This document shows positions 7,986-63,912 of a stretch of 64,000 nt of DNA, one piece after another. Each line of letters starts with the position of its first letter. The stretch's first letter is position 1. The stretch lies in the sequence record MN850622.1; one strand, written 5' to 3'. The translations under genes and the position numbers were made by a program. The notes under the pieces are model-generated. The model did no database searches, was not told where the DNA came from, and was given only the letters and a program-made list of their open reading frames with translations. The stretch comes from Escherichia phage mobillu.

Positions 7986-8015
7986 GTTTACATCTTCCTC
8001 TAGGCATGATATGAT
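7986..8015 (+). promoter_or_regulatory. T4-type early promoter
   Basis: GTTTAC -35, TATGAT -10, spacer 18; directly after gene 41 terminator hairpin. Confidence 0.5.
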
Positions 8016-8044
8016 GTACTTACACCAACCAAGAGGAAAACATT

Positions 8045-8419
8045 ATGAATATGTCTCAAGCAATTTTTACTGTAATCACCGAAAACACAACTGTTGAAGT
8101 AGTTTCTCCACTGGCAACCTACGTTATTCTTGCTCCTAAAACTATTGTATCTCGTATGGAAAACATGGGCAAACGTATCGTACAAATAGTTGGAGCCGGA
8201 AATCAAAAACTTGATTATCTACGAACCATCAAAGCTTATGAACATTTCCAACTCGAAAAAGGTTCTCCTATCCAGGTAGAACTCGTAAATGGTGATATCG
8301 TTCGAGCAATGTTCCATCATTTCTATGCATTGAATGACCCATCTAAAGCGGTTCGTTTAATTGCATACGACGCAAACCAAAACGAAATCAACGCAGATGT
8401 ATCTAAATTACGTTTTTAA
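8045..8419 (+). CDS. hypothetical protein
   Basis: 124 aa ORF downstream of early promoter; no motif recognised. Confidence 0.5.
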   Translation: MNMSQAIFTVITENTTVEVVSPLATYVILAPKTIVSRMENMGKRIVQIVGAGNQKLDYLRTIKAYEHFQLEKGSPIQVELVNGDIVRAMFHHFYALNDPSKAVRLIAYDANQNEINADVSKLRF

Positions 8420-8448
8420 GTTTACTTCTCCAGTAGTTGTGTTATTAT
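8420..8448 (+). promoter_or_regulatory. T4-type early promoter with 10-bp inverted repeat around -10
   Basis: GTTTAC ... TATTAT; ccagtagttg / caactactgg flank the -10. Confidence 0.6.
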
Positions 8449-8474
8449 AGATCTATCAACTACTGGAGAACAAA

Positions 8475-8792
8475 ATGAAAACCATCGATTGTAAAGCAGA
8501 ATTTAAGATTTTTTATCACGGTTCAAGTAGTTCAGCTAACATCGAAAACATGCTTTGTCCTCCTGAAGAAACAGGAGTTCTGTCTGAAACTGGACGTAAG
8601 AAAAACTTGGATCGTGTATTCTTTACTGAAGATATCGGTTTAGCAAAGATTTATGCAGGACGAGCAGCACGCTCTTATGGAGGTGAACCACGTCTCTATC
8701 GAGTAATTTCTCCGGTAGATGTAGTTCAAATGAATGATACTAAAGGCGCTACAGTTTATCACGCTGAATGGGCATTTTGCGAGGAAATATGA
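8475..8792 (+). CDS. Arr-like (rifampin ADP-ribosyltransferase fold) small protein
   Basis: 105 aa; FYHGSSSSANIENML and RVFFTEDIGLAKIYA resemble Arr H-G-[ST]...YF(T/S) core; own early promoter with 10-bp inverted repeat. Confidence 0.45.
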   Translation: MKTIDCKAEFKIFYHGSSSSANIENMLCPPEETGVLSETGRKKNLDRVFFTEDIGLAKIYAGRAARSYGGEPRLYRVISPVDVVQMNDTKGATVYHAEWAFCEEI

Positions 8793-8977
8793 GCAAATTA
8801 ACTAAAGTTACTTTTATCGGTTGGTTTAAAAGCGGTGAGATGTTCACTAAAGATATCATGTTATCAGGTGATCGCGAAGAAATCGAGTGGGTTACGGTAC
8901 AACTTGCTGAAGTGAACAAAGCATTAGTTAAAGCATTTGTTAATGACGAGAAAGTTTTCGAAGCAGATTTTCGATAA
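8789..8977 (+). CDS. hypothetical small protein, translationally coupled to Arr-like gene (size/position compatible with dmd)
   Basis: ATGA overlap with upstream stop, GAGGAA upstream; 62 aa; T4 dmd is a ~60 aa gene in the same 41-61 interval. Confidence 0.4.
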   Translation: MSKLTKVTFIGWFKSGEMFTKDIMLSGDREEIEWVTVQLAEVNKALVKAFVNDEKVFEADFR

Positions 8978-8989
8978 TTTTAAATAGCT

Positions 8990-9019
8990 GTTTACAAGCC
9001 CCACATACTGTGTTACTAT
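8990..9019 (+). promoter_or_regulatory. T4-type early promoter
   Basis: GTTTAC + 18 + TACTAT, then CTATCAAC leader. Confidence 0.55.
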
Positions 9020-9047
9020 CTTTCTATCAACTACAGAGGAAATTGAA

Positions 9048-9416
9048 ATGAAAAAATTAATCGCTTTAGCAATGGTATTTGGATTAACCGGATGTGGTGC
9101 CCATGGCTTTATCCCTAATAATGTTGGCCAACTGATTTATAATCCGAATGTTAAACAGTACGACCAACCTAAAGTTGAAGTGGAAGACCCGGTTACTGTA
9201 GGTAATCGAATGATTCAAGCTGATGCCCATGCTCAACGTTATCGTGACTCTGATACTGTAGCATTGTCAAAAGAACAGCGCGTTAAAGAACATTGCTTAC
9301 AGGCTACTGAAATCGCATTCATTCGCTATGTTGAAACAACCGGTAAAGAGCCTACCCAGAAACAAATCGCGAATAACTACGTCCAGTGTATTGAACGTTT
9401 AAACAAATTTAATTAA
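9048..9416 (+). CDS. putative lipoprotein
   Basis: Signal peptide MKKLIALAMVFGLTGC with lipobox LTGC; 122 aa. Confidence 0.6.
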   Translation: MKKLIALAMVFGLTGCGAHGFIPNNVGQLIYNPNVKQYDQPKVEVEDPVTVGNRMIQADAHAQRYRDSDTVALSKEQRVKEHCLQATEIAFIRYVETTGKEPTQKQIANNYVQCIERLNKFN

Positions 9417-9419
9417 TTG

Positions 9420-9449
9420 GTTTACACCAAAGTTAAAATAAGATACTAT
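9420..9449 (+). promoter_or_regulatory. T4-type early promoter
   Basis: GTTTAC + 18 + TACTAT. Confidence 0.55.
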
Positions 9450-9477
9450 AAACATAACAAATCAAGAGGAAATTAAC

Positions 9478-9726
9478 ATGGAATTATTCGTAGCTAGTTC
9501 AGTAGCAGTTTTAATCGCAGGTATTGGTTCAATCATCATTTACATGTTGCCTTGGGTAATCGCACTTATTCGTGGCACAAAAAGCACAACAGCAATCTTC
9601 TTTGTATCTTTACTCTTTAACTGGACGATGGTTGGTTGGATTGGAACTTTAATTTGGTCTATCATTGCCGAAAAGAAATCGGCTCAGCAGCCTCAACAAG
9701 TAATTATTATTCGCGAAAAAGAATAA
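9478..9726 (+). CDS. small membrane protein resembling superinfection immunity (Imm) family
   Basis: 82 aa, two hydrophobic segments, central RGTKS and W-rich second helix (NWTMVGWIGTLIW). Confidence 0.4.
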   Translation: MELFVASSVAVLIAGIGSIIIYMLPWVIALIRGTKSTTAIFFVSLLFNWTMVGWIGTLIWSIIAEKKSAQQPQQVIIIREKE

Positions 9727-9730
9727 ACTT

Positions 9731-9760
9731 GTTTACATTATAGATGGACTATAGTATAGT
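9731..9760 (+). promoter_or_regulatory. T4-type early promoter with inverted repeat around -10
   Basis: GTTTAC; ggact-atagtatagt-agtcc. Confidence 0.55.
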
Positions 9761-9789
9761 AGTCCTATCAAATCAACTAAGGAGTTAAA

Positions 9790-10083
9790 ATGAAAAAGTT
9801 ATCATTGGCAGCAATCTTACTTGCAGTATCATGTGCACCGGCTCCAGTTACGGCAGGTTATGATAAAGACCTCTGTGAGTGGTCAATGACTGCAAATCAA
9901 GAAGATGTTGAACAACAAATCTTCTCTGATATCATGAACATCACTAAACGAGACCGTCCTAATATGGTTAATAAAGTTGTTGAACAACTTAAGTCTGGCG
10001 GTATCATGCAGTACAACTATGTTTTGTATTGTGACCCTAATTTCGATAACAAAGATATCGTAACCGAAATCACAGGTGAATAA
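9790..10083 (+). CDS. sp: Spackle-like periplasmic protein (superinfection exclusion / lysozyme inhibitor)
   Basis: 97 aa with cleavable signal peptide; size and position (before 61.2-like, upstream of 61) as T4 sp. Confidence 0.5.
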   Translation: MKKLSLAAILLAVSCAPAPVTAGYDKDLCEWSMTANQEDVEQQIFSDIMNITKRDRPNMVNKVVEQLKSGGIMQYNYVLYCDPNFDNKDIVTEITGE

Positions 10084-10084
10084 T

Positions 10085-10735
10085 ATGATTTATTATATGC
10101 ACAAAAATGCGCCATTTAAATATGGTAAATTTCCTAATGCACAATGTTATAATATAACGCCGAATGAAAATAATAACGGATACCATCTCGGTGTAATTTT
10201 TGTAATTGTTAAAGATAACGAAATAGTTGCCTGGGCAGATTTTAAAGGTACAACATATGATGTTAATCCTGTGCCTTTCACATATTACAATATAATGGAT
10301 TTGGCATATGATTATAATTGGTTTAATCATGACACGTTGGCTCATATTGAAGGTGTAGGATTTGACATCTCTTATTCTAGCTATTCATTATGTCCTATGA
10401 GCCGAGCTCACGGTAAAGATGTATCATATCTTTCAATTCGGAAACGTGTAAACTTCAAACGTAGTACAGAGTATGTTGGTGGACTCTTTGTTAAAGATAA
10501 TAAAATAACCCGTATTAGTTATCCTCTAAGTGTAGGCCAAAAAGATGTTGATGTTGATTTGGACTTAACTGAAAATAACATTAATCGTATTGCTTCTGTA
10601 TATTTTGATATCGATGAAAAAATTGTAGTGTGTGGATACGAATTACCACCTGAAGAAAAGGCCGAAGCAATTGAAGTCGAATTAGAAATTTCTGTTGATG
10701 ACCAAATATTTAATGCATTTATGAATCGAGGTTAA
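10085..10735 (+). CDS. hypothetical protein (61.2-position)
   Basis: ATG 1 nt after upstream stop; 216 aa. Confidence 0.5.
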   Translation: MIYYMHKNAPFKYGKFPNAQCYNITPNENNNGYHLGVIFVIVKDNEIVAWADFKGTTYDVNPVPFTYYNIMDLAYDYNWFNHDTLAHIEGVGFDISYSSYSLCPMSRAHGKDVSYLSIRKRVNFKRSTEYVGGLFVKDNKITRISYPLSVGQKDVDVDLDLTENNINRIASVYFDIDEKIVVCGYELPPEEKAEAIEVELEISVDDQIFNAFMNRG

Positions 10736-10736
10736 A

Positions 10737-10934
10737 ATGACTACTGCAATTTGCACTGGTTCTAAAATTAGTGTTTTTACAAGTTTTGAAGATTATGAAG
10801 TTGTTTCAAAACACCAATGCCATATTAGCGTAAAAGCTAATGATGGTGTAATTTGGAATATTCCACAGTATGAAGGCACTACATATGAAGTCACAGATAT
10901 AAATGGTGACAAAGCAATCTTTGTAATTGATTAA
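10737..10934 (+). CDS. hypothetical small protein
   Basis: 65 aa ORF tightly packed between neighbours. Confidence 0.4.
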   Translation: MTTAICTGSKISVFTSFEDYEVVSKHQCHISVKANDGVIWNIPQYEGTTYEVTDINGDKAIFVID

Positions 10935-10953
10935 ATATACTCAGGAGGTACCT

Positions 10954-11421
10954 ATGGGTATTATTAACACTGCAATAGATTCTGTTTATGCATATAAGTT
11001 TATTCGACTAATGCAAAAACCTTTTACTGAATGGAAAGCATACGAAGCCAAAATCATCGATGAACGTGGAAGTGTTCTTAAACGCCCTTCCACTCCTGAA
11101 GAGAAAGCGGCTTATACACCTTTTCATGCTTCAGTTCGTTCAATGAAGCGAATGATGAGCACTGTTCCAGGTCTTAATGGAATGGCCTCAATGATGTCTG
11201 CCTGGAGTGCTGTAGCTTCACGCTATAACATTACGGAAGAACAACAGAAAGAAATATTTAAAGAACTCCCTTTATTTGAGGATATGGTTGCTGGTGATTC
11301 AGGCGACAGTCCTCAAGCTATTGCATCAGGAACAACTACAGGTGCAGTCGTAAATAAAGGTCCAGAACAAATTCCTTCCAAGAAAAGAAAGCGAATTAAA
11401 GTAAATATTAATAAGTTGTGA
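10954..11421 (+). CDS. hypothetical protein
   Basis: AGGAGG RBS 6 nt upstream of ATG 10954; 155 aa; Ser/Met-rich middle, basic C-terminus. Confidence 0.5.
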   Translation: MGIINTAIDSVYAYKFIRLMQKPFTEWKAYEAKIIDERGSVLKRPSTPEEKAAYTPFHASVRSMKRMMSTVPGLNGMASMMSAWSAVASRYNITEEQQKEIFKELPLFEDMVAGDSGDSPQAIASGTTTGAVVNKGPEQIPSKKRKRIKVNINKL

Positions 11422-11460
11422 TATGATGGCCTTATTAATTTAAGGCCTCTGGAGAATACT

Positions 11461-12483
11461 ATGGCTGAATGGATAGATAATGAATTTGCTTATCGTGCGT
11501 TTTCTCACCTACCTCGTTTTAGACAAATCAATAATTCAAGCACATTTAAATTAACATTTCGATGTCCAGTTTGTGGCGACTCTCAGACAGATGCAATGAA
11601 AGCTCGCGGTTGGTATTATGGCGGTACTCCTGGTAATGTACATTGCTATAACTGTCAATACCACAATACAATTTCCGGATACTTAAAGGAGTATGATGAA
11701 GAGCTTTATCGCGAATATCTAATGGAAGTTCGTAAAGAAAAAGCTAGAATGGAACCAAAGATTGAAAAGGTTCCTGAAGCTAAGCCAGAGCCAGAGAAAA
11801 AGACTATAAATTCTTTGCCGTCTTGTTCTCGTCTGGACAAGTTGCCTGAAGAGCATCCTATTGTGAAATATGTTAAGTCTCGGTGTATTCCTAAAGAATC
11901 ATGGAACAGATTATGGTTCACATTAGAATGGCCCAAATTGGTCAACAAGATTCAACCTGGTACGTATAAGAAAGAGATTCCCGAACCACGTTTAGTGATT
12001 CCTATTTTTAATAAAGATGGTAAGGCCGAGTCATTCCAAGGACGTGCACTTCGTAAAGATGCTCCTCAGAAATATATCACTATTAAAGCGTTTGAGTCTG
12101 CAACAAAAATTTATGGTGTTGAACGTGTTAAGGAAGGGGACGTCTGGGTAATGGAAGGCCCTATTGATAGTTTATTCATACCCAATGCAATCGCTATTAC
12201 AGGCGGCTCAATAGATTTAGATGTGGTACCATTTAAAGAACGTCGGGTATGGGTAATGGATAATGAACCTAGGCATCCGGATACTATAGCTCGCATGAAG
12301 CGATTAGTTGATGCAGGCGAACGTGTCATGTTCTGGGATCGAGCTCCATGGAGATCAAAGGATGTGAATGATATGGTAATGAAAGAAAATGCAACACCAC
12401 AAGAAATTTTAGAATATATGAAACAGAATATTTCAAGTGGGTTGCATGCTAAAATGAGATTATCTCGTTATTCGAAGATTTAA
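11461..12483 (+). CDS. 61: gp61 DNA primase
   Basis: 340 aa; N-terminal zinc-binding CPVCGDS...CYNC, toprim-like core; synteny. Confidence 0.9.
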   Translation: MAEWIDNEFAYRAFSHLPRFRQINNSSTFKLTFRCPVCGDSQTDAMKARGWYYGGTPGNVHCYNCQYHNTISGYLKEYDEELYREYLMEVRKEKARMEPKIEKVPEAKPEPEKKTINSLPSCSRLDKLPEEHPIVKYVKSRCIPKESWNRLWFTLEWPKLVNKIQPGTYKKEIPEPRLVIPIFNKDGKAESFQGRALRKDAPQKYITIKAFESATKIYGVERVKEGDVWVMEGPIDSLFIPNAIAITGGSIDLDVVPFKERRVWVMDNEPRHPDTIARMKRLVDAGERVMFWDRAPWRSKDVNDMVMKENATPQEILEYMKQNISSGLHAKMRLSRYSKI

Positions 12484-13956: not shown

Positions 13957-13986
13957 GTTTACAACAACTAAAAACTGTGTTAAGAT
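13957..13986 (+). promoter_or_regulatory. T4-type early promoter
   Basis: GTTTAC + 18 + TAAGAT; follows soc terminator. Confidence 0.5.
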
Positions 13987-15493: not shown

Positions 15494-16075
15494 ATGACAT
15501 GTCAATCTGAACTTCAAGAACGTGAATACCTAACAAATCTGATTGATAGCAAATTCACCCACCAAGAACAAAACATTCTCTGGGCTTGCACCGATTCTAA
15601 GGAAGACCCGGATTTCCACTATGAATTAGACCATCTTGTTCGTAAGCATATGACTTCTACAGTACCAGTAGAACTCTACCGTGGTGTAACTCCAGAAGAA
15701 GTAGAACGTCTTTCACTTCTTTCTGTTGGTTGCCATTGGTCTCCTGGACGAGTAACATCGTTCACAACTGATTTCAGTACAGCTCGTCAATTCTCCGGGA
15801 GATGGGAATATCAGACGTACACTATTCTTAGTCTCAGGAATGCTCCATTCATTTTTGATTACTACCAAAACATGATTAACATTGTACTCGCCGGAAAGAA
15901 CCCTAAGCATGTTATGGAAGAAACGCGTGTTGACGTCCTAGATATGATTGAATCTGAACAAGAGTACATGGTCTCAGGTATCTCTAGATTTGAGATTGTG
16001 GAAATTGAAGACTTAGAATATGACCCTTTATCTCGATTATACAAAATCATTCATTTGAAAATGTTGAATTTTTAG
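15494..16075 (+). CDS. ADP-ribosyltransferase, ModA/ModB family (ModB position)
   Basis: 193 aa; R-S-E triad: ELYRG, FSTAR, SEQEY; tandem with paralog; synteny next to srd. Confidence 0.7.
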   Translation: MTCQSELQEREYLTNLIDSKFTHQEQNILWACTDSKEDPDFHYELDHLVRKHMTSTVPVELYRGVTPEEVERLSLLSVGCHWSPGRVTSFTTDFSTARQFSGRWEYQTYTILSLRNAPFIFDYYQNMINIVLAGKNPKHVMEETRVDVLDMIESEQEYMVSGISRFEIVEIEDLEYDPLSRLYKIIHLKMLNF

Positions 16076-16104: not shown

Positions 16105-16133
16105 TACCTTTATCAACCACAGGAGAAACCTAA

Positions 16134-16742
16134 ATGTTTATGCCGTATAACGAGTGTGAAATTGAAGAAATTGTTCGTCGTGCTCAAAACCCCGAATATC
16201 AAGATGTATTGCAGTACGAAATTGATAGTCAATTCAGCGACATTGAACAAAGTGTACTGTGGCAGTGTATGGAAAACAAGCCAGACTGTATTCAACAGGA
16301 GTTAAGTTCAATCGTTCGTAGAAATTGGACGTCTTCTGTTCCTGAGACAATGTATCGTGGAATCTCTAAGAAAACTATGGCCGCACTCGATGATAAAGGC
16401 ATTGGTAGTATTATTAAATTTGACAGAGTAATGAGCTTCAGCCCAGTGTTCGGTGTAGCACGTAACTTTGCTTCGTATAATTTTTACGGAACATTTAATA
16501 TGTTCTGCATCAAAGATGCACCATTTGCTTTCAACTTCCGTGAACATATGCTTAACATGATTCTGGCTGCGCCATCTTGTGAGTTCAATGGAGCTTTCCC
16601 TGAAGCGACAAGACGGTCTAATGCTAGACTTATATCCGACGAATGTGAATTTATGCTCCCTATAGGGACTACACTGCGTGTAGATTCTATTATTCAAGAT
16701 GGACGTTATACAATCTGGAATCTGTCTATTGTCAGTTACTGA
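16134..16742 (+). CDS. ADP-ribosyltransferase, ModA/ModB family (ModA position)
   Basis: 202 aa; MYRGIS, FSPVFGVAR, ECEF motifs; paralog of upstream gene. Confidence 0.7.
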   Translation: MFMPYNECEIEEIVRRAQNPEYQDVLQYEIDSQFSDIEQSVLWQCMENKPDCIQQELSSIVRRNWTSSVPETMYRGISKKTMAALDDKGIGSIIKFDRVMSFSPVFGVARNFASYNFYGTFNMFCIKDAPFAFNFREHMLNMILAAPSCEFNGAFPEATRRSNARLISDECEFMLPIGTTLRVDSIIQDGRYTIWNLSIVSY

Positions 16743-16816
16743 CTGAATTGGAATAACCGGATGGAACTCAGAACCATTATAACACATAAAAAATTAAAGC
16801 ATTTTACGAAAAAAGA

Positions 16817-16845
16817 GTGTACACTACCTGAGGGCATGATATTAT
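16817..16845 (+). promoter_or_regulatory. T4-type early promoter (variant -35 GTGTAC)
   Basis: GTGTAC + 17 + TATTAT upstream of srd. Confidence 0.45.
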
Positions 16846-16894
16846 AAGCTTATCAGCTAAATGACTTAACGTCCGTAAGACAGAGGAAAATATT

Positions 16895-17641
16895 ATGTTA
16901 TCAAATAATAAAATTAACAAAATCAATCGTCGTCTTGACCACACCAGAGCTTCTGCGAAGAGACGCTCTAAGGATTTTAACTTAGACTTTAATTACCTTA
17001 AAAACATTCTTGATCAAAAGGTCTGCGCTTACTCAGGTGAATCTTTCAATAACTCTGTTGAAGGTGAGAAATTATCCTTAGAACGTTTTAATAACGATAT
17101 CGGCTACATTAAAGGTAATGTTATCCCGGTTAAGAAAAAATATAACACGGCTCGTTCTGATTTAACATTAGAAGAACTTATTGAGAAACGTGACGCTGTT
17201 GCAAGACGTATCGCTAATCCTTCTGCCCGTAAAGTAGAGAAACTTAATCTCGACGAGAAGAAATGGGCCCAAATTAAAAAGGTTTATGATACTATTTTAA
17301 AAATCCGAGCAAAACGTGAAAATCGTGTTAAGCATATGGCGAACATGATGAAAAATCAACCTTTATCTAACGAATCTAAACTTAGAATTGTTGCTTTGAA
17401 AGCACGCATTAATGGCTCACATCAAGCAGAAGGCCATGAACTTACTAAACTCAACGTTCTTCTTAAAGGCTCTGACTGGAAAACTAAAACTAAATTAACT
17501 GACGCTGAATCGCTTTTCGATACATATGATAAAGTTATCCAAGGTCTGCAACGCTTTGAAAAGATTGGTTTCATTGGTAAATTAAAATTGAAACGTGGCT
17601 TACCACTTAGCGCATCATTATTCCAACTGATTAAAGGTTAA
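16895..17641 (+). CDS. srd: Srd-like protein (sigma-70/32 decoy-like)
   Basis: 248 aa basic protein located between mod genes and dda as T4 srd. Confidence 0.5.
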   Translation: MLSNNKINKINRRLDHTRASAKRRSKDFNLDFNYLKNILDQKVCAYSGESFNNSVEGEKLSLERFNNDIGYIKGNVIPVKKKYNTARSDLTLEELIEKRDAVARRIANPSARKVEKLNLDEKKWAQIKKVYDTILKIRAKRENRVKHMANMMKNQPLSNESKLRIVALKARINGSHQAEGHELTKLNVLLKGSDWKTKTKLTDAESLFDTYDKVIQGLQRFEKIGFIGKLKLKRGLPLSASLFQLIKG

Positions 17642-17643
17642 TT

Positions 17644-17955
17644 ATGGTTTATGTATATGCAATAGTTTATCGAGATATGGAAGGATTTACCGTCCCGGTT
17701 CCACTTGATGAGCATCGTCCTGCAGTATTTTTTAGAAAGGATATTGCAGATAAAGTTTTCGATACTTTGAAAACACAGTATAAAACAGATTTAAAAATGG
17801 GAGTTCTAAGAATGGTCGAAACTCCGCGTAAGTTCTGGTTTAATAAGCTTGAAATGAAACACGTTAAACTAGATGCGGAGACGCAAAGATTGTATCAACG
17901 AATCCTGGACACAGGCCGTATTGTTAGTATTCCAATTGCAGGGACTTTACGATGA
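17644..17955 (+). CDS. hypothetical protein (dda.1 position)
   Basis: 103 aa, overlaps dda start. Confidence 0.5.
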   Translation: MVYVYAIVYRDMEGFTVPVPLDEHRPAVFFRKDIADKVFDTLKTQYKTDLKMGVLRMVETPRKFWFNKLEMKHVKLDAETQRLYQRILDTGRIVSIPIAGTLR

Positions 17956-19265
17956 CATTTGATGATTTGACTGAAGGCCAGAAAAACGCCTTCAACGTTG
18001 TTATGGAAGCTATTAAAGAAAAGAAACATCACGTAACTATTAATGGGCCTGCTGGTACAGGTAAAACAACCCTTACTAGATTTATTGTTGAAGCTCTTAT
18101 TTCTTCAGGAGAATCAGGTATTATTTTAGCAGCCCCTACACATGCTGCTAAAAAGGTTCTAAGCAAACTTGCGGGTCAAGAAGCATCGACTATTCATAGC
18201 ATTCTTAAAATCAACCCAACTACATACGAAGAAAACGTATTGTTTGAACAGAAAAAGGTTCCCGACTTAGCCTTGTGCCGTGTACTGTTATTTGATGAAG
18301 CGTCAATGTGTGACCGTTCTCTGTTTAAAATAATGTTAGCTAGTATCCCTAAATGGTGTACAGTAATTGGAATTGGTGACCGATGCCAGATTCGTCCAGT
18401 AGACCCAGGTGAATCAACTGCGTATCTAAGTCCTTTCTTCACTCACAAAGACTTTGTGCAATGCAACCTTACAGAAGTTAAACGTAGCAATGCACCAATT
18501 ATTGATGTTGCGACTGATATTCGTAATGGCAAATGGATTTACGATAAAGTAGTTGATGGACACGGTGTTCATGGATATACAGACCTTAAATCGTATATGA
18601 TGAACTATTTTAACGTTGTTAAAACTCCTGAAGACCTTTTCGAAAATCGAATGATGGCATTCACAAATAAGTCGGTGGACAAGTTAAATTCAATTATTCG
18701 CCGAAAACTTCTTGAAACAGAAAAACCATTTATTAAAGACGAAGTCATTGTTCTACAAGAGCCATTTACTAAGACATATAAGCTAGATGGTAAAAATATG
18801 ACCGAAATGCTTTTCAATAACGGGCAATTCGTTCGTATTCGAGATGCTGTAGAAACGTCTACATTCGTTAAAGCACGTGGTGTTTCAGGCGAATATATGA
18901 TACGATACTGGAATCTTACAGTAGAAACATATGGGGATGATGAAGAATACATCCGCGAAGATATAAAGGTTATTTCTTCTGAAGAAGAGCTTTATAAATT
19001 CAATTTGTTTTTGGCTAAGACCGCAGAAACATACAAATTTTGGAATAAAGGTGGTAAAGCCCCATGGAGCGAATTCTGGGATGCTAAACGCATGTTCACT
19101 AAGGTGAAGGCACTACCTGTATCAACCTTCCATAAGGCCCAGGGTATATCTGTTGACACGGCCTTTGTTTATACACCGTGTATCCATTATGCCGATTCAG
19201 AATTAGCCAAACAATTACTATATGTCGGCACGACTCGTGGTCGTTTTGACGTCCATTTTATTTGA
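17952..19265 (+). CDS. dda: Dda SF1B DNA helicase
   Basis: 437 aa; MTFDDLTEGQKNAFN...INGPAGTGKTT near-identical to T4 Dda. Confidence 0.95.
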   Translation: MTFDDLTEGQKNAFNVVMEAIKEKKHHVTINGPAGTGKTTLTRFIVEALISSGESGIILAAPTHAAKKVLSKLAGQEASTIHSILKINPTTYEENVLFEQKKVPDLALCRVLLFDEASMCDRSLFKIMLASIPKWCTVIGIGDRCQIRPVDPGESTAYLSPFFTHKDFVQCNLTEVKRSNAPIIDVATDIRNGKWIYDKVVDGHGVHGYTDLKSYMMNYFNVVKTPEDLFENRMMAFTNKSVDKLNSIIRRKLLETEKPFIKDEVIVLQEPFTKTYKLDGKNMTEMLFNNGQFVRIRDAVETSTFVKARGVSGEYMIRYWNLTVETYGDDEEYIREDIKVISSEEELYKFNLFLAKTAETYKFWNKGGKAPWSEFWDAKRMFTKVKALPVSTFHKAQGISVDTAFVYTPCIHYADSELAKQLLYVGTTRGRFDVHFI

Positions 19266-19274
19266 GAGAAAATT

Positions 19275-19952
19275 ATGAGCACTGATGTTATTATAGATTT
19301 TGAAACATTCGGCAATACATCAAAAGCGGCTGTTATTGACCTTGCGGTTATTGCATATAATTCCGACCCTGAAGTTGTTGAATCATTTGAAGAACTTGTT
19401 CAACGAGGTAAGCGAATTAAATTTAATTTAGCTTCTCAGAAAGGGAAGCGAGTTTTCGCTAAATCCACTATGAAATGGTGGAAAGAGCAATCGGCTGAAG
19501 CACGTAAAAACTTGGCCCCGTCTGAAGACGATGTCACTACGCTTGAAGGCATTAAAATCTTTTTAGATTATTGTCGAGCTAATAAAGTTGACCAATGGAA
19601 ATCACAGATGTGGTGCCGTGGTATGAGCTTTGACTTCCCGATCTTGGTCGATTTGATTCGTGACCTCTATCGTGATGAAGGTGTTCTTGAACCAGATATT
19701 GATACTGATAAATTAGAACCGGTTAAATTCTGGGCTCAACGTGATATTCGTACGGCAATCGAAGCTTACTCGTTGACACGAGGATTAAGTATGTGTCCAT
19801 TACCGATGGGTACGCTAAAAGGATTCGTTGCCCATGATAGTATTCATGATTGTGCTAAAGATATTTTGATGTTAAAATATGCTCAGCGTTATGCGCTTGG
19901 CCTTGAAGATGTCCCTGAGAATCCTGACCCATTAAGTGTAAAACAGCGATAA
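19275..19952 (+). CDS. dexA: DexA exonuclease A
   Basis: 225 aa; IIDFETFG, WCRGMSFDFPILVDLIRD, HDSIHDCAKDI match T4 DexA. Confidence 0.9.
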   Translation: MSTDVIIDFETFGNTSKAAVIDLAVIAYNSDPEVVESFEELVQRGKRIKFNLASQKGKRVFAKSTMKWWKEQSAEARKNLAPSEDDVTTLEGIKIFLDYCRANKVDQWKSQMWCRGMSFDFPILVDLIRDLYRDEGVLEPDIDTDKLEPVKFWAQRDIRTAIEAYSLTRGLSMCPLPMGTLKGFVAHDSIHDCAKDILMLKYAQRYALGLEDVPENPDPLSVKQR

Positions 19953-19957
19953 AACCG

Positions 19958-19987
19958 GTTTACAACCAAGGATGGTTGGAGTATAAT
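19958..19987 (+). promoter_or_regulatory. T4-type early promoter
   Basis: GTTTAC + 18 + TATAAT; ccaagg...ccttgg-like repeat in spacer. Confidence 0.6.
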
Positions 19988-20018
19988 CTTTCTATCTTAA
20001 CCAAACAGGAAAAACATT

Positions 20019-20513
20019 ATGAATATCAATACTACGGCTACTTACATCCTGAAAGACGAAAAACAAATCAACTGGTACGGTGCTTCAGTGCGAGCTTATG
20101 AAAAGTTTTGTGAAATTTTAGGTGCCACTCAAGGTAATAGTTTCACTATTGTTAACTTCATCAAACAAGCTGAAGGCCCTTGGTTATTCTTAGAAATTAA
20201 AAATTCATACGGTACAATTTCTACTGCCGCCCTTCCAAGCACCGACTTTGAACTGTTGATTGAAGAAGTAGAACCTGTTAAAGACATCTGTATTGATATG
20301 GATATCGCTTGTATGTACGGTACTCTGATTAAGCCTATTGAGCCTACTGATTTGTTGTGTAAATATGTTTCAATTCGACGACCGTTCGCTGGTCCAGTAA
20401 ATGGCTGGGTGTCTGACCAGTGGATTGAAGAAGGTGTTGAACTTCTGAACGTTGTTCATGCAGGTGATTTTAGTGTAGTTCCACGTAGTGCTGTGGTTAA
20501 TATCCTTAATTAA
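20019..20513 (+). CDS. hypothetical protein, paralog family member 1
   Basis: 164 aa; C-terminal GWVSDQWIEEGVELLNVVHAGDFSVVP shared with two downstream paralogs. Confidence 0.55.
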   Translation: MNINTTATYILKDEKQINWYGASVRAYEKFCEILGATQGNSFTIVNFIKQAEGPWLFLEIKNSYGTISTAALPSTDFELLIEEVEPVKDICIDMDIACMYGTLIKPIEPTDLLCKYVSIRRPFAGPVNGWVSDQWIEEGVELLNVVHAGDFSVVPRSAVVNILN

Positions 20514-20515
20514 TG

Positions 20516-20545
20516 TTGTACATCCAAGGATGGATGGAGTATAGT
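20516..20545 (+). promoter_or_regulatory. T4-type early promoter (variant -35 TTGTAC)
   Basis: TTGTAC + 18 + TATAGT; near-duplicate of 19958 cassette. Confidence 0.45.
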
Positions 20546-20575
20546 GAATTCAATTTAAACAAAGAGAGAGAAATT

Positions 20576-21031
20576 ATGATTGCTATTGGTGAAATTAAGC
20601 GTGTATCGTCTGCATCTCGTTCTAAAGCTGCAGGTCGTCTAGTTGAAGTGGTAGGACTTCGTACTAATGGTACTGGTCGTGTTAAAGAAGTTAAAGTTCG
20701 AATCATTCCTAGTTCTGGAAAAACTGAAACTCAGTACGCTTACGTAAGTCCTAAATTTTTGGAAACTCATGTGAGCGCTCATTTTGCTTCTACTGAACCT
20801 AATGCACAGTTCAAATGGGCCCTTTGCAAAGGTGTTGAATTCCAGACTGATAAAGAATTTGACTTCATCGATGAATATGGTTATCCAAGCAAAACTGATA
20901 CTATGTGTGGCTTCATTAGTGACCAATGGGTTGAAGATGGTGAAAAGTTATACAATATCGTATTCTTAGGTGACTTCCGAGTTGTTAAAGAATCTGAAAT
21001 CACTCGCTATGTGTCTCCTCGTAAAGCTTAA
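20576..21031 (+). CDS. hypothetical protein, paralog family member 2
   Basis: 151 aa from internal ATG (track start lies in promoter); SRSKAAGRLVEV and GFISDQWVEDGEKLYNIVFLGDF motifs. Confidence 0.55.
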   Translation: MIAIGEIKRVSSASRSKAAGRLVEVVGLRTNGTGRVKEVKVRIIPSSGKTETQYAYVSPKFLETHVSAHFASTEPNAQFKWALCKGVEFQTDKEFDFIDEYGYPSKTDTMCGFISDQWVEDGEKLYNIVFLGDFRVVKESEITRYVSPRKA

Positions 21032-21464: not shown

Positions 21465-21493
21465 GTTTACTTCTCCTCTGGTTTTGATATTAT
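21465..21493 (+). promoter_or_regulatory. T4-type early promoter with 9-bp inverted repeat around -10
   Basis: GTTTAC + 17 + TATTAT; cctctggtt / aaccagagg. Confidence 0.6.
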
Positions 21494-21519
21494 AACCATA
21501 TCAACCAGAGGAGAATAAT

Positions 21520-22044
21520 ATGTTAGTTTACCGCGTAGAACGTAGTTTTTGTACTCAACGTGAATCATTACCAGGAATTGCTATCGAAGACGGTAAAGCC
21601 GTCAGAATTTGGGAAACCTCTTGGAATAAAGAACCTCGCTCGCCGTACGGTTGGTCGGGCACCGACAACTCTGAAGAAACATGGGAGTTCCTTGATAAAC
21701 ACGGAATACTCTCAGGTAACTTCTACCATCACGGCGACAACTATAATGTCCCTAATCGTCCTACAGTAAATGAAGACAAACTCCTTGAACAAAATATCTT
21801 AAGATACCATAGAATTGAGTACACATTTGAATTGAGTGAAGATTGGGCTCAAGGGTTCTATTTTGGATTTGAAAGTGTTGACGCGGTTTATGCATGGTTT
21901 GATGACCAGGTGGATGTTGAACTCTTGAAAGCTAAAGGATACTACATCGCGGTCTATGAAGCACCTGATTTCATCCTCGGAAGTTGTCAATTAATGTTCA
22001 GACGTTCATTGGCAGAACAAGTTGATTTTATTTTGCTAAAATGA
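21520..22044 (+). CDS. hypothetical protein
   Basis: 174 aa ORF after early promoter with GAGGAG RBS. Confidence 0.55.
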   Translation: MLVYRVERSFCTQRESLPGIAIEDGKAVRIWETSWNKEPRSPYGWSGTDNSEETWEFLDKHGILSGNFYHHGDNYNVPNRPTVNEDKLLEQNILRYHRIEYTFELSEDWAQGFYFGFESVDAVYAWFDDQVDVELLKAKGYYIAVYEAPDFILGSCQLMFRRSLAEQVDFILLK

Positions 22045-22073
22045 TGTACAACAACTATGGTCTATGATACTAT
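22044..22073 (+). promoter_or_regulatory. T4-type early promoter (variant -35 ATGTAC)
   Basis: ATGTAC + 18 + TACTAT; ggtctat / atagacc inverted repeat. Confidence 0.45.
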
Positions 22074-22101
22074 AGACCTATCAAAACAAGAGGAGAATAT
22101 T

Positions 22102-22329
22102 ATGAAACGTCAAATCATTAAAAACGTAACTACTGATTCAAACATCGATGAGTTTGAAGATGTTCTGTTTAATCCTGATTTAGTTGTTGTACAGAAAAAC
22201 TGGACTGAATTTTTATGCTACACTGAAGTGGTTTACGTTTACGAAAAACTCGGCGATGAAATGCCTATCTATGGTATCTTCCGTGAAATCACTGAAAATG
22301 GTACAACTTATTGGAAGGAAACTTACTAA
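22102..22329 (+). CDS. hypothetical protein
   Basis: 75 aa from ATG with AAGAGGAG RBS; track start 22057 lies inside promoter hairpin. Confidence 0.5.
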
Positions 22330-30680: not shown

Positions 30681-30710
30681 GTTTACAACTAAGTAGGACT
30701 ATGATATATT
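30681..30710 (+). promoter_or_regulatory. T4-type early promoter with inverted repeat
   Basis: GTTTAC + 18 + TATATT; taggact / agtccta. Confidence 0.55.
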
Positions 30711-30736
30711 AGTCCTATCTAAAAGAGGATAACATC

Positions 30737-31189: not shown

Positions 31190-31219
31190 GTTTACATCAC
31201 GGTAGGATTATGGTATAGT
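31190..31219 (+). promoter_or_regulatory. T4-type early promoter with inverted repeat
   Basis: GTTTAC + 18 + TATAGT; gtaggat / agtcctac. Confidence 0.55.
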
Positions 31220-31247
31220 AGTCCTACTGAAACATGAGGAACACAAA

Positions 31248-33786: not shown

Positions 33787-33825
33787 AAACCTATCAAAAC
33801 AAAACAGCCGAATTGGAGAAATAAA

Positions 33826-36285: not shown

Positions 36286-36319
36286 ATCCATATCAACTAA
36301 GTGGAATGAATAAAACGTT

Positions 36320-50050: not shown

Positions 50051-50079
50051 GTTTACTTCTTCCCTGGATGTGTTAGTAT
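50051..50079 (+). promoter_or_regulatory. T4-type early promoter
   Basis: GTTTAC + 17 + TAGTAT, CTATCAAC leader; after gene 32 terminator. Confidence 0.5.
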
Positions 50080-50108
50080 AGACCTATCAACAACATGAGG
50101 AAATCAAA

Positions 50109-50495
50109 ATGGAAATCGGAAAATCTTATATCATCAACCCTTTATTTAAAGACGACTTTGCTAACGAGTGCCGTTGCAATACAATAATGCTAAATTTAAT
50201 AGAGAAGCACGGACCTAGTTTTGTTGTAGATGAAATGGAAAGTGATGATTGTGCTGGTGAATGTGTGGTACGTGTAACTATGGAAGATGGCACTGAATAC
50301 ATGGCGAGTGGCCCACTTGAGACGTATTTTGAGATTTACTCTGAAGAATTCAAATACTTTACTGAGGTAGATTTAGTAAAGCCTCAACCTACTAACGAAG
50401 GTATAACTTTAGGTGTAACAAAAATCCATTGTATCGTAGATGAAACCAACGTCGACGAAATCATCGAACTTTTGCAAAAAACTTTTAAAAAGTAG
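50109..50495 (+). CDS. hypothetical protein
   Basis: 128 aa after early promoter. Confidence 0.5.
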   Translation: MEIGKSYIINPLFKDDFANECRCNTIMLNLIEKHGPSFVVDEMESDDCAGECVVRVTMEDGTEYMASGPLETYFEIYSEEFKYFTEVDLVKPQPTNEGITLGVTKIHCIVDETNVDEIIELLQKTFKK

Positions 50496-50524
50496 TTTAT
50501 AATAAGATAGGGTTATGTTATAGT
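50495..50524 (+). promoter_or_regulatory. T4-type early promoter with inverted repeat
   Basis: GTTTAT + 18 + TATAGT; gataggg / ccctatc. Confidence 0.5.
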
Positions 50525-50557
50525 AGCCCTATCAAATCAAAAGTGAAGGAGAATAAA

Positions 50558-50806
50558 ATGAGATTGCAACGCCAGAGCATCAAAGATTCTGAAGTTAGAG
50601 GTAAATGGTACTTCAACATCGTTGGTAAAGACGCTGAACTCCTTGAACAAGCTGAAGAAGCTTTACGTGAAATGGGTTGGAATGAAGAATGTGATGGATG
50701 TCCACTCTACGAAGATGGTGAAAGCGCAGGATTCTGGATTCACCACTCTGATGTTGAATCGTTTAAAGCTGATTGGAAAGTTGTTAAGAAAAATCTGAGG
50801 AAATAA
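50558..50806 (+). CDS. hypothetical protein
   Basis: 82 aa from ATG with GAAGGAG RBS; track GTG start lies in promoter region. Confidence 0.5.
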   Translation: MRLQRQSIKDSEVRGKWYFNIVGKDAELLEQAEEALREMGWNEECDGCPLYEDGESAGFWIHHSDVESFKADWKVVKKNLRK

Positions 50807-52509: not shown

Positions 52510-52533
52510 CGCTTCAGTTTAAAAGTGTATAAT
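52510..52533 (+). promoter_or_regulatory. putative middle promoter for nrdA
   Basis: cGCTTCA + 11 nt + TATAAT. Confidence 0.35.
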
Positions 52534-52596
52534 AAATTAACGGGATAAATACTATCCCGTTTGGAGTAATGTCTATCAACCTATACTGAGGAATAT

Positions 52597-54852
52597 ATGC
52601 AAGTAACTAAGAGCAGTGGTGTATCACAAAATTTTGATGCACAGAAAATTATTCAAGTCTTAACTTGGCAATGTGAAGGAACACAAATTGATCCATATGA
52701 ATTGTACGAAGAAATTAAGACCCATCTTGTCGACGGGATGAGCACCAAAGATATCCAGAAGATTTGTATTAAAGTTGCAGCTAACTCGATTTCTGTCGAA
52801 GAACCTGATTATCAGTATGTCGCCGCCAAAGGGCTAATGTTTGCACTTCGTAAAGATGTATATGGGCAGTTTGAACCGCCTGCTTTTATCGACCATATTT
52901 CTTATTGTGTTAATGAAGGCAAATATGACCCTGAGCTGTTGTCTCAATATTCAGCAGAAGAAATCATTTATCTCGATTCACAGATTAAACATGAACGAGA
53001 CTTTGACCTGACTTATGCTGGTGCTATGCAGCTTAAAGAAAAATATCTAGTTAAAGATAAAACAACTGGGAAGATTTATGAAACTCCCCAGTTTGCTATC
53101 ATGGCTATTGGCATGGCCTTACACCAAGACGAAACTCATGACCGTTTGAAACATATTATTCGTTTTTATGATGCCGTTTCTACTCATCAAGTTTCATTGC
53201 CAACCCCAATTATGGCAGGTGCTCGTACTCCAACTCGCCAGTTCTCTAGTTGTGTAGTTATTGAAGCCGGTGATTCGTTAAAATCTATTAACAAAACTTC
53301 AGCATCAATTATTGAATATATTTCTAAACGAGCTGGTATCGGTATCAACGTTGGTATGCTTCGTGCAGAAGGTTCTAAGATCGGTATGGGTGAAGTTCGA
53401 CATACGGGTGTTATTCCATTCTGGAAACATTTCCAAACTGCAGTAAAATCTTGTTCTCAAGGTGGTATTCGTGGTGGTGCTGCTACAGCGTATTATCCGA
53501 TGTGGCACTTAGAAGTAGAGAACCTATTAGTTCTGAAAAATAACAAAGGCGTGGATGAAAACCGTATTCGACATATGGACTACGGAATTCAGATTAATGA
53601 CCTCATGATGGAACGCCTTGGTAAAAATGATTATATTACTTTATTTAGCCCTCACGAAATGTCAGGCGAACTATATTACTCGTTCTTTGAAGATCAAGAT
53701 AAATTCCGTGAGCTTTATGAGAAAGCTGAAAAAGACCCAACAATTAGAAAGAAAAGAATCAAAGCACTAGAACTCTTTGAATTGTTCATGACTGAACGTT
53801 CTGGTACTGCTCGAATTTATCCACAGTTTGTTGATAACACGAATAACTACACTCCATTTATTCGTGAAAAAGCTCCAATTCGTCAAAGTAACTTATGTTG
53901 TGAAATCGCTATTCCAACTAATGATGTGAATGGTCCTGATGCTGAAATTGGTTTATGCACATTATCTGCTTTTGTATTAGATAAATTTGATTGGCAAGAC
54001 CAAGATAAAATTAATGAACTTGCTGAAGTACAAGTACGTGCACTTGATAACCTGCTAGACTATCAAGATTATCCGGTTCCAGAAGCTTTAAAAGCTAAAA
54101 AGCGTCGTAATCTTGGTGTTGGTGTTACGAACTATGCTGCATGGTTAGCTTCTAACTTTGCTTCATATGAAGACGCTAACGATTTGACTCATGAATTGTT
54201 TGAGAGATTGCAATATGGCCTTATCAAAGCATCAATCAAACTCGCCAAAGAAAAAGGATGTTGCGAGTATTATTCAGACACTAAATGGTCTAGAGGCGAA
54301 TTACCTATCGACTGGTACAATAAAAAGATTGACCAAATCGCAGCCCCGAACTACGTCTGTGACTGGGAAGAACTTCGAGCTAAACTCAAAGAACATGGAA
54401 TTCGTAACTCAACGTTGTCTGCACTCATGCCTTGTGAGTCAAGCAGTCAAGTATCAAACTCTACAAACGGGATTGAGCCACCACGTGGTCCAGTAAGTAT
54501 TAAAGAATCTAAAGAAGGCAACTTCCGACAGGTTGTTCCTAATATCGAACATAACATGAGTCTTTACGACTACGCGTGGAAACTTGCTAAGAAAGGTAAT
54601 AAACCTTATTTGACCCAAGTTGCTATCATGTTGAAATGGGTGTGCCAATCTGCTTCTGCTAATACTTACTATGACCCTGCAGTATTTGAGAAAGGTAAAG
54701 TGCCAATGTCAGTAATGCTTGACGATCTGCTTTACTTCTGGTACTTTGGCGGAAAAAACCTCTACTATCATAACACTCGTGATGGGTCTGGTACAGACGA
54801 CTATGAATTAGAAACACCTAAAGCAGAAGATTGTTCTGCTTGTAAGCTTTAA
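52597..54852 (+). CDS. nrdA: ribonucleotide reductase class Ia large subunit
   Basis: 751 aa; ATP-cone N-terminus, NLCCEI active-site region, C-terminal CSACKL-like tail. Confidence 0.9.
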   Translation: MQVTKSSGVSQNFDAQKIIQVLTWQCEGTQIDPYELYEEIKTHLVDGMSTKDIQKICIKVAANSISVEEPDYQYVAAKGLMFALRKDVYGQFEPPAFIDHISYCVNEGKYDPELLSQYSAEEIIYLDSQIKHERDFDLTYAGAMQLKEKYLVKDKTTGKIYETPQFAIMAIGMALHQDETHDRLKHIIRFYDAVSTHQVSLPTPIMAGARTPTRQFSSCVVIEAGDSLKSINKTSASIIEYISKRAGIGINVGMLRAEGSKIGMGEVRHTGVIPFWKHFQTAVKSCSQGGIRGGAATAYYPMWHLEVENLLVLKNNKGVDENRIRHMDYGIQINDLMMERLGKNDYITLFSPHEMSGELYYSFFEDQDKFRELYEKAEKDPTIRKKRIKALELFELFMTERSGTARIYPQFVDNTNNYTPFIREKAPIRQSNLCCEIAIPTNDVNGPDAEIGLCTLSAFVLDKFDWQDQDKINELAEVQVRALDNLLDYQDYPVPEALKAKKRRNLGVGVTNYAAWLASNFASYEDANDLTHELFERLQYGLIKASIKLAKEKGCCEYYSDTKWSRGELPIDWYNKKIDQIAAPNYVCDWEELRAKLKEHGIRNSTLSALMPCESSSQVSNSTNGIEPPRGPVSIKESKEGNFRQVVPNIEHNMSLYDYAWKLAKKGNKPYLTQVAIMLKWVCQSASANTYYDPAVFEKGKVPMSVMLDDLLYFWYFGGKNLYYHNTRDGSGTDDYELETPKAEDCSACKL

Positions 54853-57732: not shown

Positions 57733-57762
57733 GGCTTTTATCAACAACACGAGGAGAAAATT

Positions 57763-61235: not shown

Positions 61236-61265
61236 GTTTACAACATGGTGGAGTTGTGATACTAT
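61236..61265 (+). promoter_or_regulatory. T4-type early promoter heading the unit that contains DAHP synthase and cd
   Basis: GTTTAC + 18 + TACTAT. Confidence 0.55.
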
Positions 61266-61293
61266 AACTCTACCAACAAATGAGGAAATAGAA

Positions 61294-63225: not shown

Positions 63226-63522
63226 ATGATTTTAACTGAACAAGAAACTATGGTTCTTCGTGAACGTATTAAAACTATTCTGTCTGTAGGCGTTCATTGT
63301 GTTGTATTTGAAAAGGCTAACGGTGAGGTACGCGCTATGTTTGCTTCTCGCGATGAACTTGAAGTCAAATATGAAAATAACAATCCGGCATCAGAAGTTC
63401 GTTCTGAACCTCGTGAATCAGTTCGAGCATTCGATACCAAGTTAGGTCAGTGGCGTTCTTTCCGCCTTGATAAAGTAATTTCGGTTGATGGTACTCCGGT
63501 AGAACGTTTGCTTCTTATGTAA
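63226..63522 (+). CDS. hypothetical protein
   Basis: 98 aa from ATG 63226. Confidence 0.45.
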   Translation: MILTEQETMVLRERIKTILSVGVHCVVFEKANGEVRAMFASRDELEVKYENNNPASEVRSEPRESVRAFDTKLGQWRSFRLDKVISVDGTPVERLLLM

Positions 63523-63524
63523 TA

Positions 63525-63549
63525 TGCTTTACGAATAGTATGGTATTAT
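63525..63549 (+). promoter_or_regulatory. putative middle promoter for gene 31
   Basis: aTGCTTTAcgaatagtatggTATTAT. Confidence 0.35.
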
Positions 63550-63579
63550 TAATCTATCGTCAAACAACAAGGAAATAAG

Positions 63580-63912
63580 ATGTCTGAAGTACAACTCCCA
63601 ATTCGTGCTGTTGGTGAATATGTCATTCTGGTTTCTGAACCCGCTCAAGCAGGTGATGAAGAAGTTACCGAATCAGGACTTGTGATTGGTAAACGTGTTC
63701 AAGGTGAAGTTCCTGAACTATGTGTAGTTCATTCTGTAGGTCCTGATGTTCCTGAAGGTTTTGTTGAAGTCGGTGATTTGACTCCACTACCAGTTGGACA
63801 AATTCGAAATGTTCCACATCCATTTGTGGCTTTGGGACTTAAACAACCTAAAGAAATTAAACAGAAATTCGTAACATGCCACTATAAAGCTATTCCGTGT
63901 CTTTATAAGTGA
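63580..63912 (+). CDS. 31: gp31 co-chaperonin (GroES-like)
   Basis: 110 aa; [34 protein letters not shown]...[14 protein letters not shown] matches T4 gp31. Confidence 0.9.

Follow-up and report, generated by a model that had tools for sequence, protein, structure and literature searches.

A conserved sequence block at the predicted transcription start of early promoters in an RB69-like T-even phage

Results

The DNA under study is a stretch of 64,000 nucleotides from Escherichia phage mobillu (MN850622.1), referred to below as the window and numbered from its first letter. At the focal locus, the + strand carries in close succession a -35 hexamer (GTTTAC, 8420..8425), a -10 hexamer (TATTAT, 8443..8448) preceded by TG at -15/-14, the start block TCTATCAAC (8452..8460, positions -3 to +6 relative to a predicted start at A 8455), and a GGAG Shine-Dalgarno sequence with its ATG at 8475-8477 (8465..8477 together), the Shine-Dalgarno lying within a perfect copy of the RegB-type consensus, GGAGAACAAAA (8465-8475). 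This promoter is the orthologue of RB69 Pe:20537. The 4-kb stretch around it, corresponding to the primase, spackle, imm and dmd region, shares 98.6-99% identity with RB69, an Escherichia phage of the genus Mosigvirus, and with close relatives of it, more than 350 related genomes being recovered by the comparison; the window is that of an RB69-like T-even phage. Since the + strand of the window is the minus strand of the RB69 record, on which the early genes lie, the motif described here belongs to early promoters of a phage of T-even type; the gene context of these promoters (motA, imm, sp and dmd-region orthologues) is one of T4 early genes. When window positions 8000-12000 were aligned to RB69 16738-20943, the 4001 nt fell into two pieces spanning ~4206 nt, in RB69 and several relatives alike, and the window would thus lack ~200 nt of the RB69 primase-dmd region. 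The window promoter near 50051 is also unlike RB69 Pe:146013, which suggests local mosaicism.

The initial annotation had listed fourteen positions at which a (C)TATCAA(C) motif was thought to recur upstream of early genes. Inspection of the sequence bore out the recurrence: the exact hexamer TATCAA was present in 12 of the 14 cases, 0-4 nt from the position given, and one-mismatch variants were present in the other two (CTATCTAA at 30715 and CTACCAAC at 61270). Of the fourteen sites, thirteen lie inside a canonical early promoter and share one order of elements, namely an A/T-rich tract, GTTTAC, 17-18 nt, TG, TAnnnT, 4-5 nt, (C/T)TATCAA(C/A), a short A/C-rich leader, a Shine-Dalgarno sequence of the form GAGG or GGAG, and the ATG. 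The remaining site, at 52574..52579 on the + strand, is located upstream of an nrdA homologue, after a hairpin (ACGGGATA..TATCCCGT). As no -35 or -10 element stands in register with it, this TATCAA was rejected as a member of the family and is probably a chance or unrelated hexamer. The hairpin preceding it, ACGGGATAaatacTATCCCGT (52530-52600), could be a terminator or a processing structure.

Besides the focal locus, the block TCTATCAAC is found at 9023..9031, upstream of imm.1 (predicted start 9026; orthologue of RB69 Pe:19761). The form CCTATCAAA occurs at 9764..9772, upstream of sp (predicted start 9767); at 22077..22085, behind a weak -35 hexamer, ATGTAC, at a place where the orthologous T4 site has no promoter (predicted start 22080); at 33790..33798, in the motA promoter (predicted start 33793), the T4 orthologue of which reads CTATCAAC and has a diverged spacer; and at 50528..50536 (predicted start 50531), where CCCTATC doubles as the 3' arm of a hairpin enclosing the -10 hexamer. 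The block reads CATATCAAC at 21497..21505 and 36289..36297 (predicted starts 21500 and 36292) and CCTATCAAC at 50083..50091 (predicted start 50086). Copies with one mismatch are CATAACAAA at 9453..9461, upstream of imm (predicted start 9456), CTTATCAGC at 16849..16857 (predicted start 16852), CCTATCTAA at 30714..30722 (predicted start 30717) and TCTACCAAC at 61269..61277 (predicted start 61272). Finally, the form TTTATCAAC is present in the promoters at 16075 and 57703, at 16109..16117 and 57737..57745, respectively (predicted starts 16112 and 57740); in both, the block is displaced by 1 nt further from the -10 hexamer, after the discriminators TACCTT and GGCTTT. All of these blocks are on the + strand.

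The positional specificity of the motif was assessed in promoters selected blind to it, that is, by GTTTAC with no more than one mismatch, a spacer of N16-18, TAnnnT, and the presence within 60 nt of a Shine-Dalgarno sequence and an ATG, and offsets of -40 to +30 relative to the -10 hexamer were scanned. Exact TATCAA was confined to offset 5 after the -10 hexamer or, in rare cases, offset 6; the remaining 69 offsets had none. It occupied offset 5/6 in 9 of 22 promoters of the window, 18 of 45 in RB69 and 8 of 33 in T4, for an expectation of 0.02-0.04. The motif is thereby confirmed as real and highly non-random. Addition of two promoters with weaker flanks and removal of one site, a MotA-box middle promoter, yielded a final set of 23 early promoters in the window, all on the + strand and of common architecture, 22 of which have an A at the predicted start. 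The earlier attribution of the motif to "most" early cassettes proved somewhat generous, the exact hexamer being present in 11 of the 23 promoters and a version with at most one mismatch in 15. Over the whole window, TATCAA was counted 109 times versus 69 +/- 7 in dinucleotide shuffles, and none of 100 shuffles reached 109. The frequency of the hexamer is thus above expectation, but most of this excess comes from coding DNA of either strand and has no bearing on the promoter signal, for which the positional test is the decisive statistic. With the promoter copies subtracted, TATCAA still exceeds the shuffles on both strands (about 97 vs 69), presumably on account of codon usage.

In the early promoters of the window, the motif begins 21-34 nt upstream of the ATG and ends about 15-28 nt upstream of it, close to the 15-25 nt initially proposed; in the positional test, its distance to the ATG ranged from 21 to 38 nt. 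Because its distance to the -10 hexamer is fixed while that to the ATG is variable, the motif is tied to the -10 element and not to the ribosome site.

As to the class of these promoters, the -35 hexamer is exactly GTTTAC in 20 of the 23, with the variants GTGTAC (twice), GTTTAT and ATGTAC; TG is present at -15/-14 in 19 of the 23; and the 20 nt upstream of the -35 hexamer have an A+T content of 0.75, compared to 0.62 for the whole window. The promoters had been selected for a -10 hexamer of the form TAnnnT and for spacer length. A MotA box, (a/t)(a/t)TGCTT(t/a)A located 11-13 nt before the -10 hexamer, is absent from the motif-bearing promoters, which harbor GTTTAC at -35 instead. By their sequence, the motif-bearing promoters thus appear to be T4-type early (sigma-70-type) promoters. 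Middle-promoter-like sites from the window, RB69 and T4 have an A at +1, but T in place of C at -3, and are devoid of TATCAA, in what is a small sample (n=6, 11 and 14, respectively) comprising some doubtful sites and false positives. The block would, from this comparison, be a mark of the early class and not of every sigma-70 promoter in these genomes. The "CTTTAC" hit at 63510-63582 is a MotA-box middle promoter (TGCTTTA, N12, TATTAT) with a near-identical site in RB69, and its start region, taatCTATCGTC, is a partial version of the block.

Position counts yielded A(-6) g n C(-3) C(-2) T(-1) A(+1) T(+2) C(+3) A A (A/C) as the consensus. The most informative positions are -3, -2 and -1 (1.06, 0.93 and 0.81 bits in RB69), and information extends as far as +6; the peak positions are upstream of the predicted start and hence outside the RNA. 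The A of the motif stands 7 nt downstream of the -10 hexamer. For E. coli RNA polymerase, the modal start is at position 7 after the -10 element, a Y(-1)R(+1) step is preferred, and discriminators rich in pyrimidines shift the start downstream (Yu et al. 2017, PMC5730371). The 1-nt displacement of the block in the promoters at 16075 and 57703 fits the latter behavior, the push downstream being that expected of pyrimidine-rich discriminators.

T4 early promoters are conventionally named by genome coordinate (PMC6024815), and six such coordinates were available for comparison, namely Pe133295, named in a note of T4's GenBank entry, and 57954, 35662, 41225, 150727 and 27044 (PMC6024815). All six fall on position 7 after a TAnnnT hexamer. 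One of them, T4 Pe26.4, has the sequence acaaCT[A]TCAACtactg, in which the motif is present as such, and Pe133295 (ctcT[A]CCAAaac) is the orthologue of the window site at 61270, its named coordinate being the same A as the start predicted at 61272. Two of the six coordinates fall on C, and some were possibly assigned by rule rather than mapped; the six are consistent with, and not proof of, the start model. In the T4 GenBank records NC_000866 and AF158101, we found no promoter features and a single note, the one naming Pe133295; literature searches for a genome-wide map of transcription starts in T4 or RB69 found none. We infer the start in this phage from the T4 coordinates together with the polymerase rules. 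The earlier proposal that the motif marks the transcription start is thus supported, at the level of sequence, by its fixed distance to the -10 hexamer, by the placement of its A at the modal position 7 of the polymerase and by the six T4 coordinates at that same position.

Early promoters of RB69 were catalogued by Nolan et al. 2006 (PMC1524935), who predicted 58 of them with a 51-nt HMM and reported a preference for C at -3 to -1. Sites of the window are orthologous to RB69 Pe:20537, 19761, 19331, 19020, 162713, 145300 and others of this catalogue. According to the coordinates in the supplement of that study, the 51-nt model stops exactly at the start-site A (+1), and the bases that follow provide an independent check, since they played no role in selection. 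The next four bases were TCAA in 23 of the 56 readable sites versus 0.3 expected, with T at +2 in 42 of the 56 and C at +3 in 37. The TCAA(A/C) half of the motif accordingly falls outside the published RB69 logo.

Beyond the RB69-like phages, our own count in T4 (Tequatrovirus) revealed the same c-c-T-A-T-C-A-A tendency in weaker form, exact TATCAA being present in ~40% of promoters in RB69-like phages versus 24% in T4. The early promoters of RB49 (Krischvirus) have TTGACA rather than GTTTAC and carry (A/C)CATCAAA or CCATCTAA at the same offset, where CCATCAAA is found in Aeromonas phage 44RR (Biquartavirus). T4-like phages of four genera, infecting two host genera, therefore have in common the unit Y(-1)-ATCAA-(A/C) with a C before it. 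The block is not essential, since about one third of the early promoters of the window are without it, as are several T4 orthologues of block-bearing promoters.

In about one third of the early promoters, positions -6 to +4, which include the CC(T)A of the block, find their complement in the 3' part of the spacer, so that a hairpin with the -10 hexamer in its loop could form. A stem of 6 bp or more encloses the -10 hexamer in 8 of 22 window promoters; inverted repeats of this kind lie at 50506-50533, 31200-31229, 61246-61275, 9745-9771, 30697-30721 and 22059-22078, and individual folds have energies of -16 to -18 kcal (z -3.9 to -4.5). Arms from the same promoter paired more strongly than arms from different promoters, with mean duplex energies of -4.7 vs -2.7 kcal in the window, -4.7 vs -3.0 in RB69 and -3.6 vs -2.2 in T4; in each of the three, 5000 permutations gave no value as strong as that observed. 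The sequences of the arms differ between promoters while their complementarity is kept, which indicates compensatory variation. Pairing of this kind may partly explain the conserved C-3 and C-2, whose partner is a G at about -20. The repeats may serve as terminators, as stabilizers of RNA or as sites of recombination.

The cassettes as a whole resemble the PeSL cassettes of RB49/phi1, PST/T4 and nt-1/KVP40, which are documented recombination substrates (PMC2839356, PMC4122927), in that they are compact intergenic units with an A/T tract, an early promoter, in about one third of them a stem-loop, a Shine-Dalgarno sequence and an ATG, present or absent relative to T4. The stems around the -10 hexamer likewise recall those of the RB49/phi1 PeSL cassettes, described as "overlapping the -10 box". 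The PeSL papers describe no start-site motif, however, and those dealing with T4/PST place the stems upstream of the promoter, whereas many of those found here, and in T4 by our own test, enclose the -10 hexamer.

A different hairpin, of 13-14 bp, is present in the cassettes at 8420 and 21465, where TTCTCC... immediately after the -35 hexamer pairs with ...GGAGAA of the Shine-Dalgarno sequence (arms 8426-8439 / 8457-8470 and 21471-21483 / 21503-21515; -21.4 kcal, z -5.3, and -23.9 kcal, z -6.2, respectively). Because the start of the cassette's own promoter is inside the loop, only RNA reading through from upstream would have its ribosome site sequestered. Further examples of such -35/Shine-Dalgarno hairpins are found in RB69 at Pe:58138, 61376 and 64934. 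Across the promoters, pairing of spacer to leader was little different between own and cross combinations (mean duplex energies of -6.7 vs -5.9 kcal), standing out only in the cassettes at 8420 and 21465 and, weakly, at 7986. The idea that the motif serves as an arm of a hairpin sequestering the Shine-Dalgarno sequence was rejected on the grounds that spacer-to-leader pairing is not general.

Discussion

We consider it probable, at roughly 0.8, that this motif represents the start-site block, C C T A T C A A A/C from -3 to +6, of sigma-70-type early promoters. Host RNA polymerase would bind the UP region, GTTTAC, TG and TAnnnT, melt the DNA and initiate at the A located 7 nt after the -10 hexamer, T(-1) before A(+1) providing the pyrimidine/purine step that the enzyme prefers, so as to produce a single well-defined start. 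Block-bearing early mRNAs would then begin with 5'-AUCAA(A/C) and continue into a G-poor, A/C-rich leader of ~20 nt followed by the Shine-Dalgarno sequence. We infer that the block is selected for fixing the start and for fast initiation and escape by the unmodified host polymerase, and that positions +2 to +6 would act on the DNA or on initial transcription rather than in the mature RNA. The core recognition element of the polymerase prefers G at +2 (PMC5730371), and the block is thus not simply the polymerase optimum, since it has T at that position. Conservation of +2 to +6 across genera fits a role at the 5' end of the RNA equally well.

Start sequences of this general type are known from other phages: lambda PL starts ATCAGC and T7 A1 starts ATCGAG, each with a pyrimidine at -1 and A-T-C first. 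Unlike the block described here, however, these belong to single promoters, are not repeated genome-wide and are without the CAA continuation. The T4 early (Pe) consensus is reportedly described in the work of Liebig & Rueger 1989, Wilkens & Rueger 1994 and Miller et al. 2003. T4 Pe promoters share with those of the window the UP-like A/T tract, GTTTAC, the 17-18 nt spacer, TG, TAnnnT and a start 7 nt downstream, and "additional regions of consensus" have been noted in them (Hinton 2010, PMC2988021). With its promoters already catalogued for RB69 and the start region partly described, the feature is an ordinary and essentially known one; the extension to +2 to +6, the specificity for the early class and the conservation across genera go slightly beyond what we found in print. 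The use of the block is mainly in annotation: for about two thirds of RB69-like early transcripts, it assigns the predicted 5' end to a single nucleotide, and it separates early promoters from middle ones. It would carry more weight if +2 to +6 had a function of their own, be it in promoter escape, in the identity of mRNA 5' ends or in early shut-off. T4 early promoters, with their extra consensus regions and rapid shut-off, are a classic "super-strong" model.

Among the alternatives to a start-site block acting at the level of DNA, the one that survives best, while unlikely in our estimation, is that selection bears on an RNA-level leader element, consisting of the common 5' end 5'-AUCAA(A/C) and the G-poor, A/C-rich leader, with roles in ribosome/S1 loading, in 5'-end-dependent stability or in recognition of immediate-early mRNA by a host or phage factor. 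Such an element would account for the retention of +1 to +6 (ATCAA A/C) in T4, RB69, RB49 and 44RR while -1 alternates between T and C, for the near absence of G from +1 to +10 (0-5 of 45 sites per position), for the unchanged sequence of the block where it is shifted by 1 nt from the -10 hexamer, and for leaders that are short and uniform, at 20-27 nt in most promoters. It would not account for the strongest conservation being at -3 to -1, which are untranscribed, and the distance to the Shine-Dalgarno sequence and ATG is variable. Searches with the Rfam 15 covariance models at gathering threshold returned no match anywhere in the window, and to our knowledge no factor reads a 5'-AUCAA(A/C)-type end. 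SELEX with RegB, moreover, found no motif besides GGAG (PMC3014915).

That the block is retained passively, its bases being functionless and kept only because a few mobile PeSL-type cassettes have been homogenized by recombination, appears rather improbable. This possibility had been raised in the initial annotation, which suggested that the motif might simply be part of a mobile cassette, and it is right to the extent that the cassettes are PeSL-like, PeSL cassettes being documented recombination substrates, and form sub-families with long identical stretches (TATAGTAGTCCTATCAAAACA in ~10 RB69 promoters and TATTATAGACCTATCAA in ~6), and that some occur in the window at places that have no cassette in T4. 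Yet the 11 promoters with the exact motif fall into 8 clusters and are only 37% identical at non-consensus positions compared to ~27% for random sequence. Conservation in the early promoters also depends on position, -5 and -4 being variable and the adjoining -3 to +3 fixed. The same block, furthermore, accompanies a different -35 hexamer in RB49 and recurs in an Aeromonas phage, which brings it to four genera, and CTATCAA is kept in the motA promoter of both T4 and the window despite a diverged spacer. Judged by these sequence comparisons, hitch-hiking appears to contribute to the pattern without explaining it. With regard to the movement of cassettes, the T4 intergenic sites orthologous to the cassettes at 22044-22105, 50051-50111 and 50495-50560 are without a promoter, and T4 carries a GGGGCT..AGCCCC hairpin instead opposite 50051; such a distribution is compatible with promoter cassettes having been gained, lost or shuffled.

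We give a slim chance to the block being a cis-element for the abrupt shut-off of early transcription, or its RNA counterpart a 5'-AUCAA tag for selective handling of immediate-early mRNA; the reading as a shut-off target is given low probability because one third of the early promoters are without the block. A DNA operator, bound at this early-specific block by host IHF (core WATCAA) or by a phage shut-off factor, is very improbable. TATCAA does match the WATCAA half of the IHF consensus, WATCAANNNNTTR, and the block is specific to the early class, but it is short and asymmetric, nothing in the window points to a binding protein, and T4 early promoters are shut off as a class even though one third of early promoters do not carry the block. 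The full IHF consensus was found in 0 of 24 cassettes, and an IHF site was rejected. In favor of an operator of some kind, the mechanism by which early promoters are shut off has been called not understood (Hinton 2010, PMC2988021; Uzan & Miller 2010).

Hardly credible, finally, is the proposal in the initial annotation of a target for a RegB-like endonuclease or a translational repressor, since the motif, despite its presence in early leaders that also have a GGAG Shine-Dalgarno sequence, has no GGA, is half upstream of the start and thus in part untranscribed, and stands at a variable distance from the Shine-Dalgarno sequence and ATG, the RegB consensus lying instead at the Shine-Dalgarno sequence, 10-15 nt downstream of the motif. 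RegB cuts GG*AG within GGAGRAYARAA; SELEX revealed no other conserved motif and no determinant upstream, and it is the sequence lying 3' of the cut that determines stimulation of RegB by S1 (PMC3014915). Perfect copies of GGAGRAYARAA are present in the window at 8465-8475 and at the Shine-Dalgarno sequence of the cassette at 50495 (about 50545-50555), and copies with one mismatch at the Shine-Dalgarno sequences of the cassettes at 13957 and 21465.
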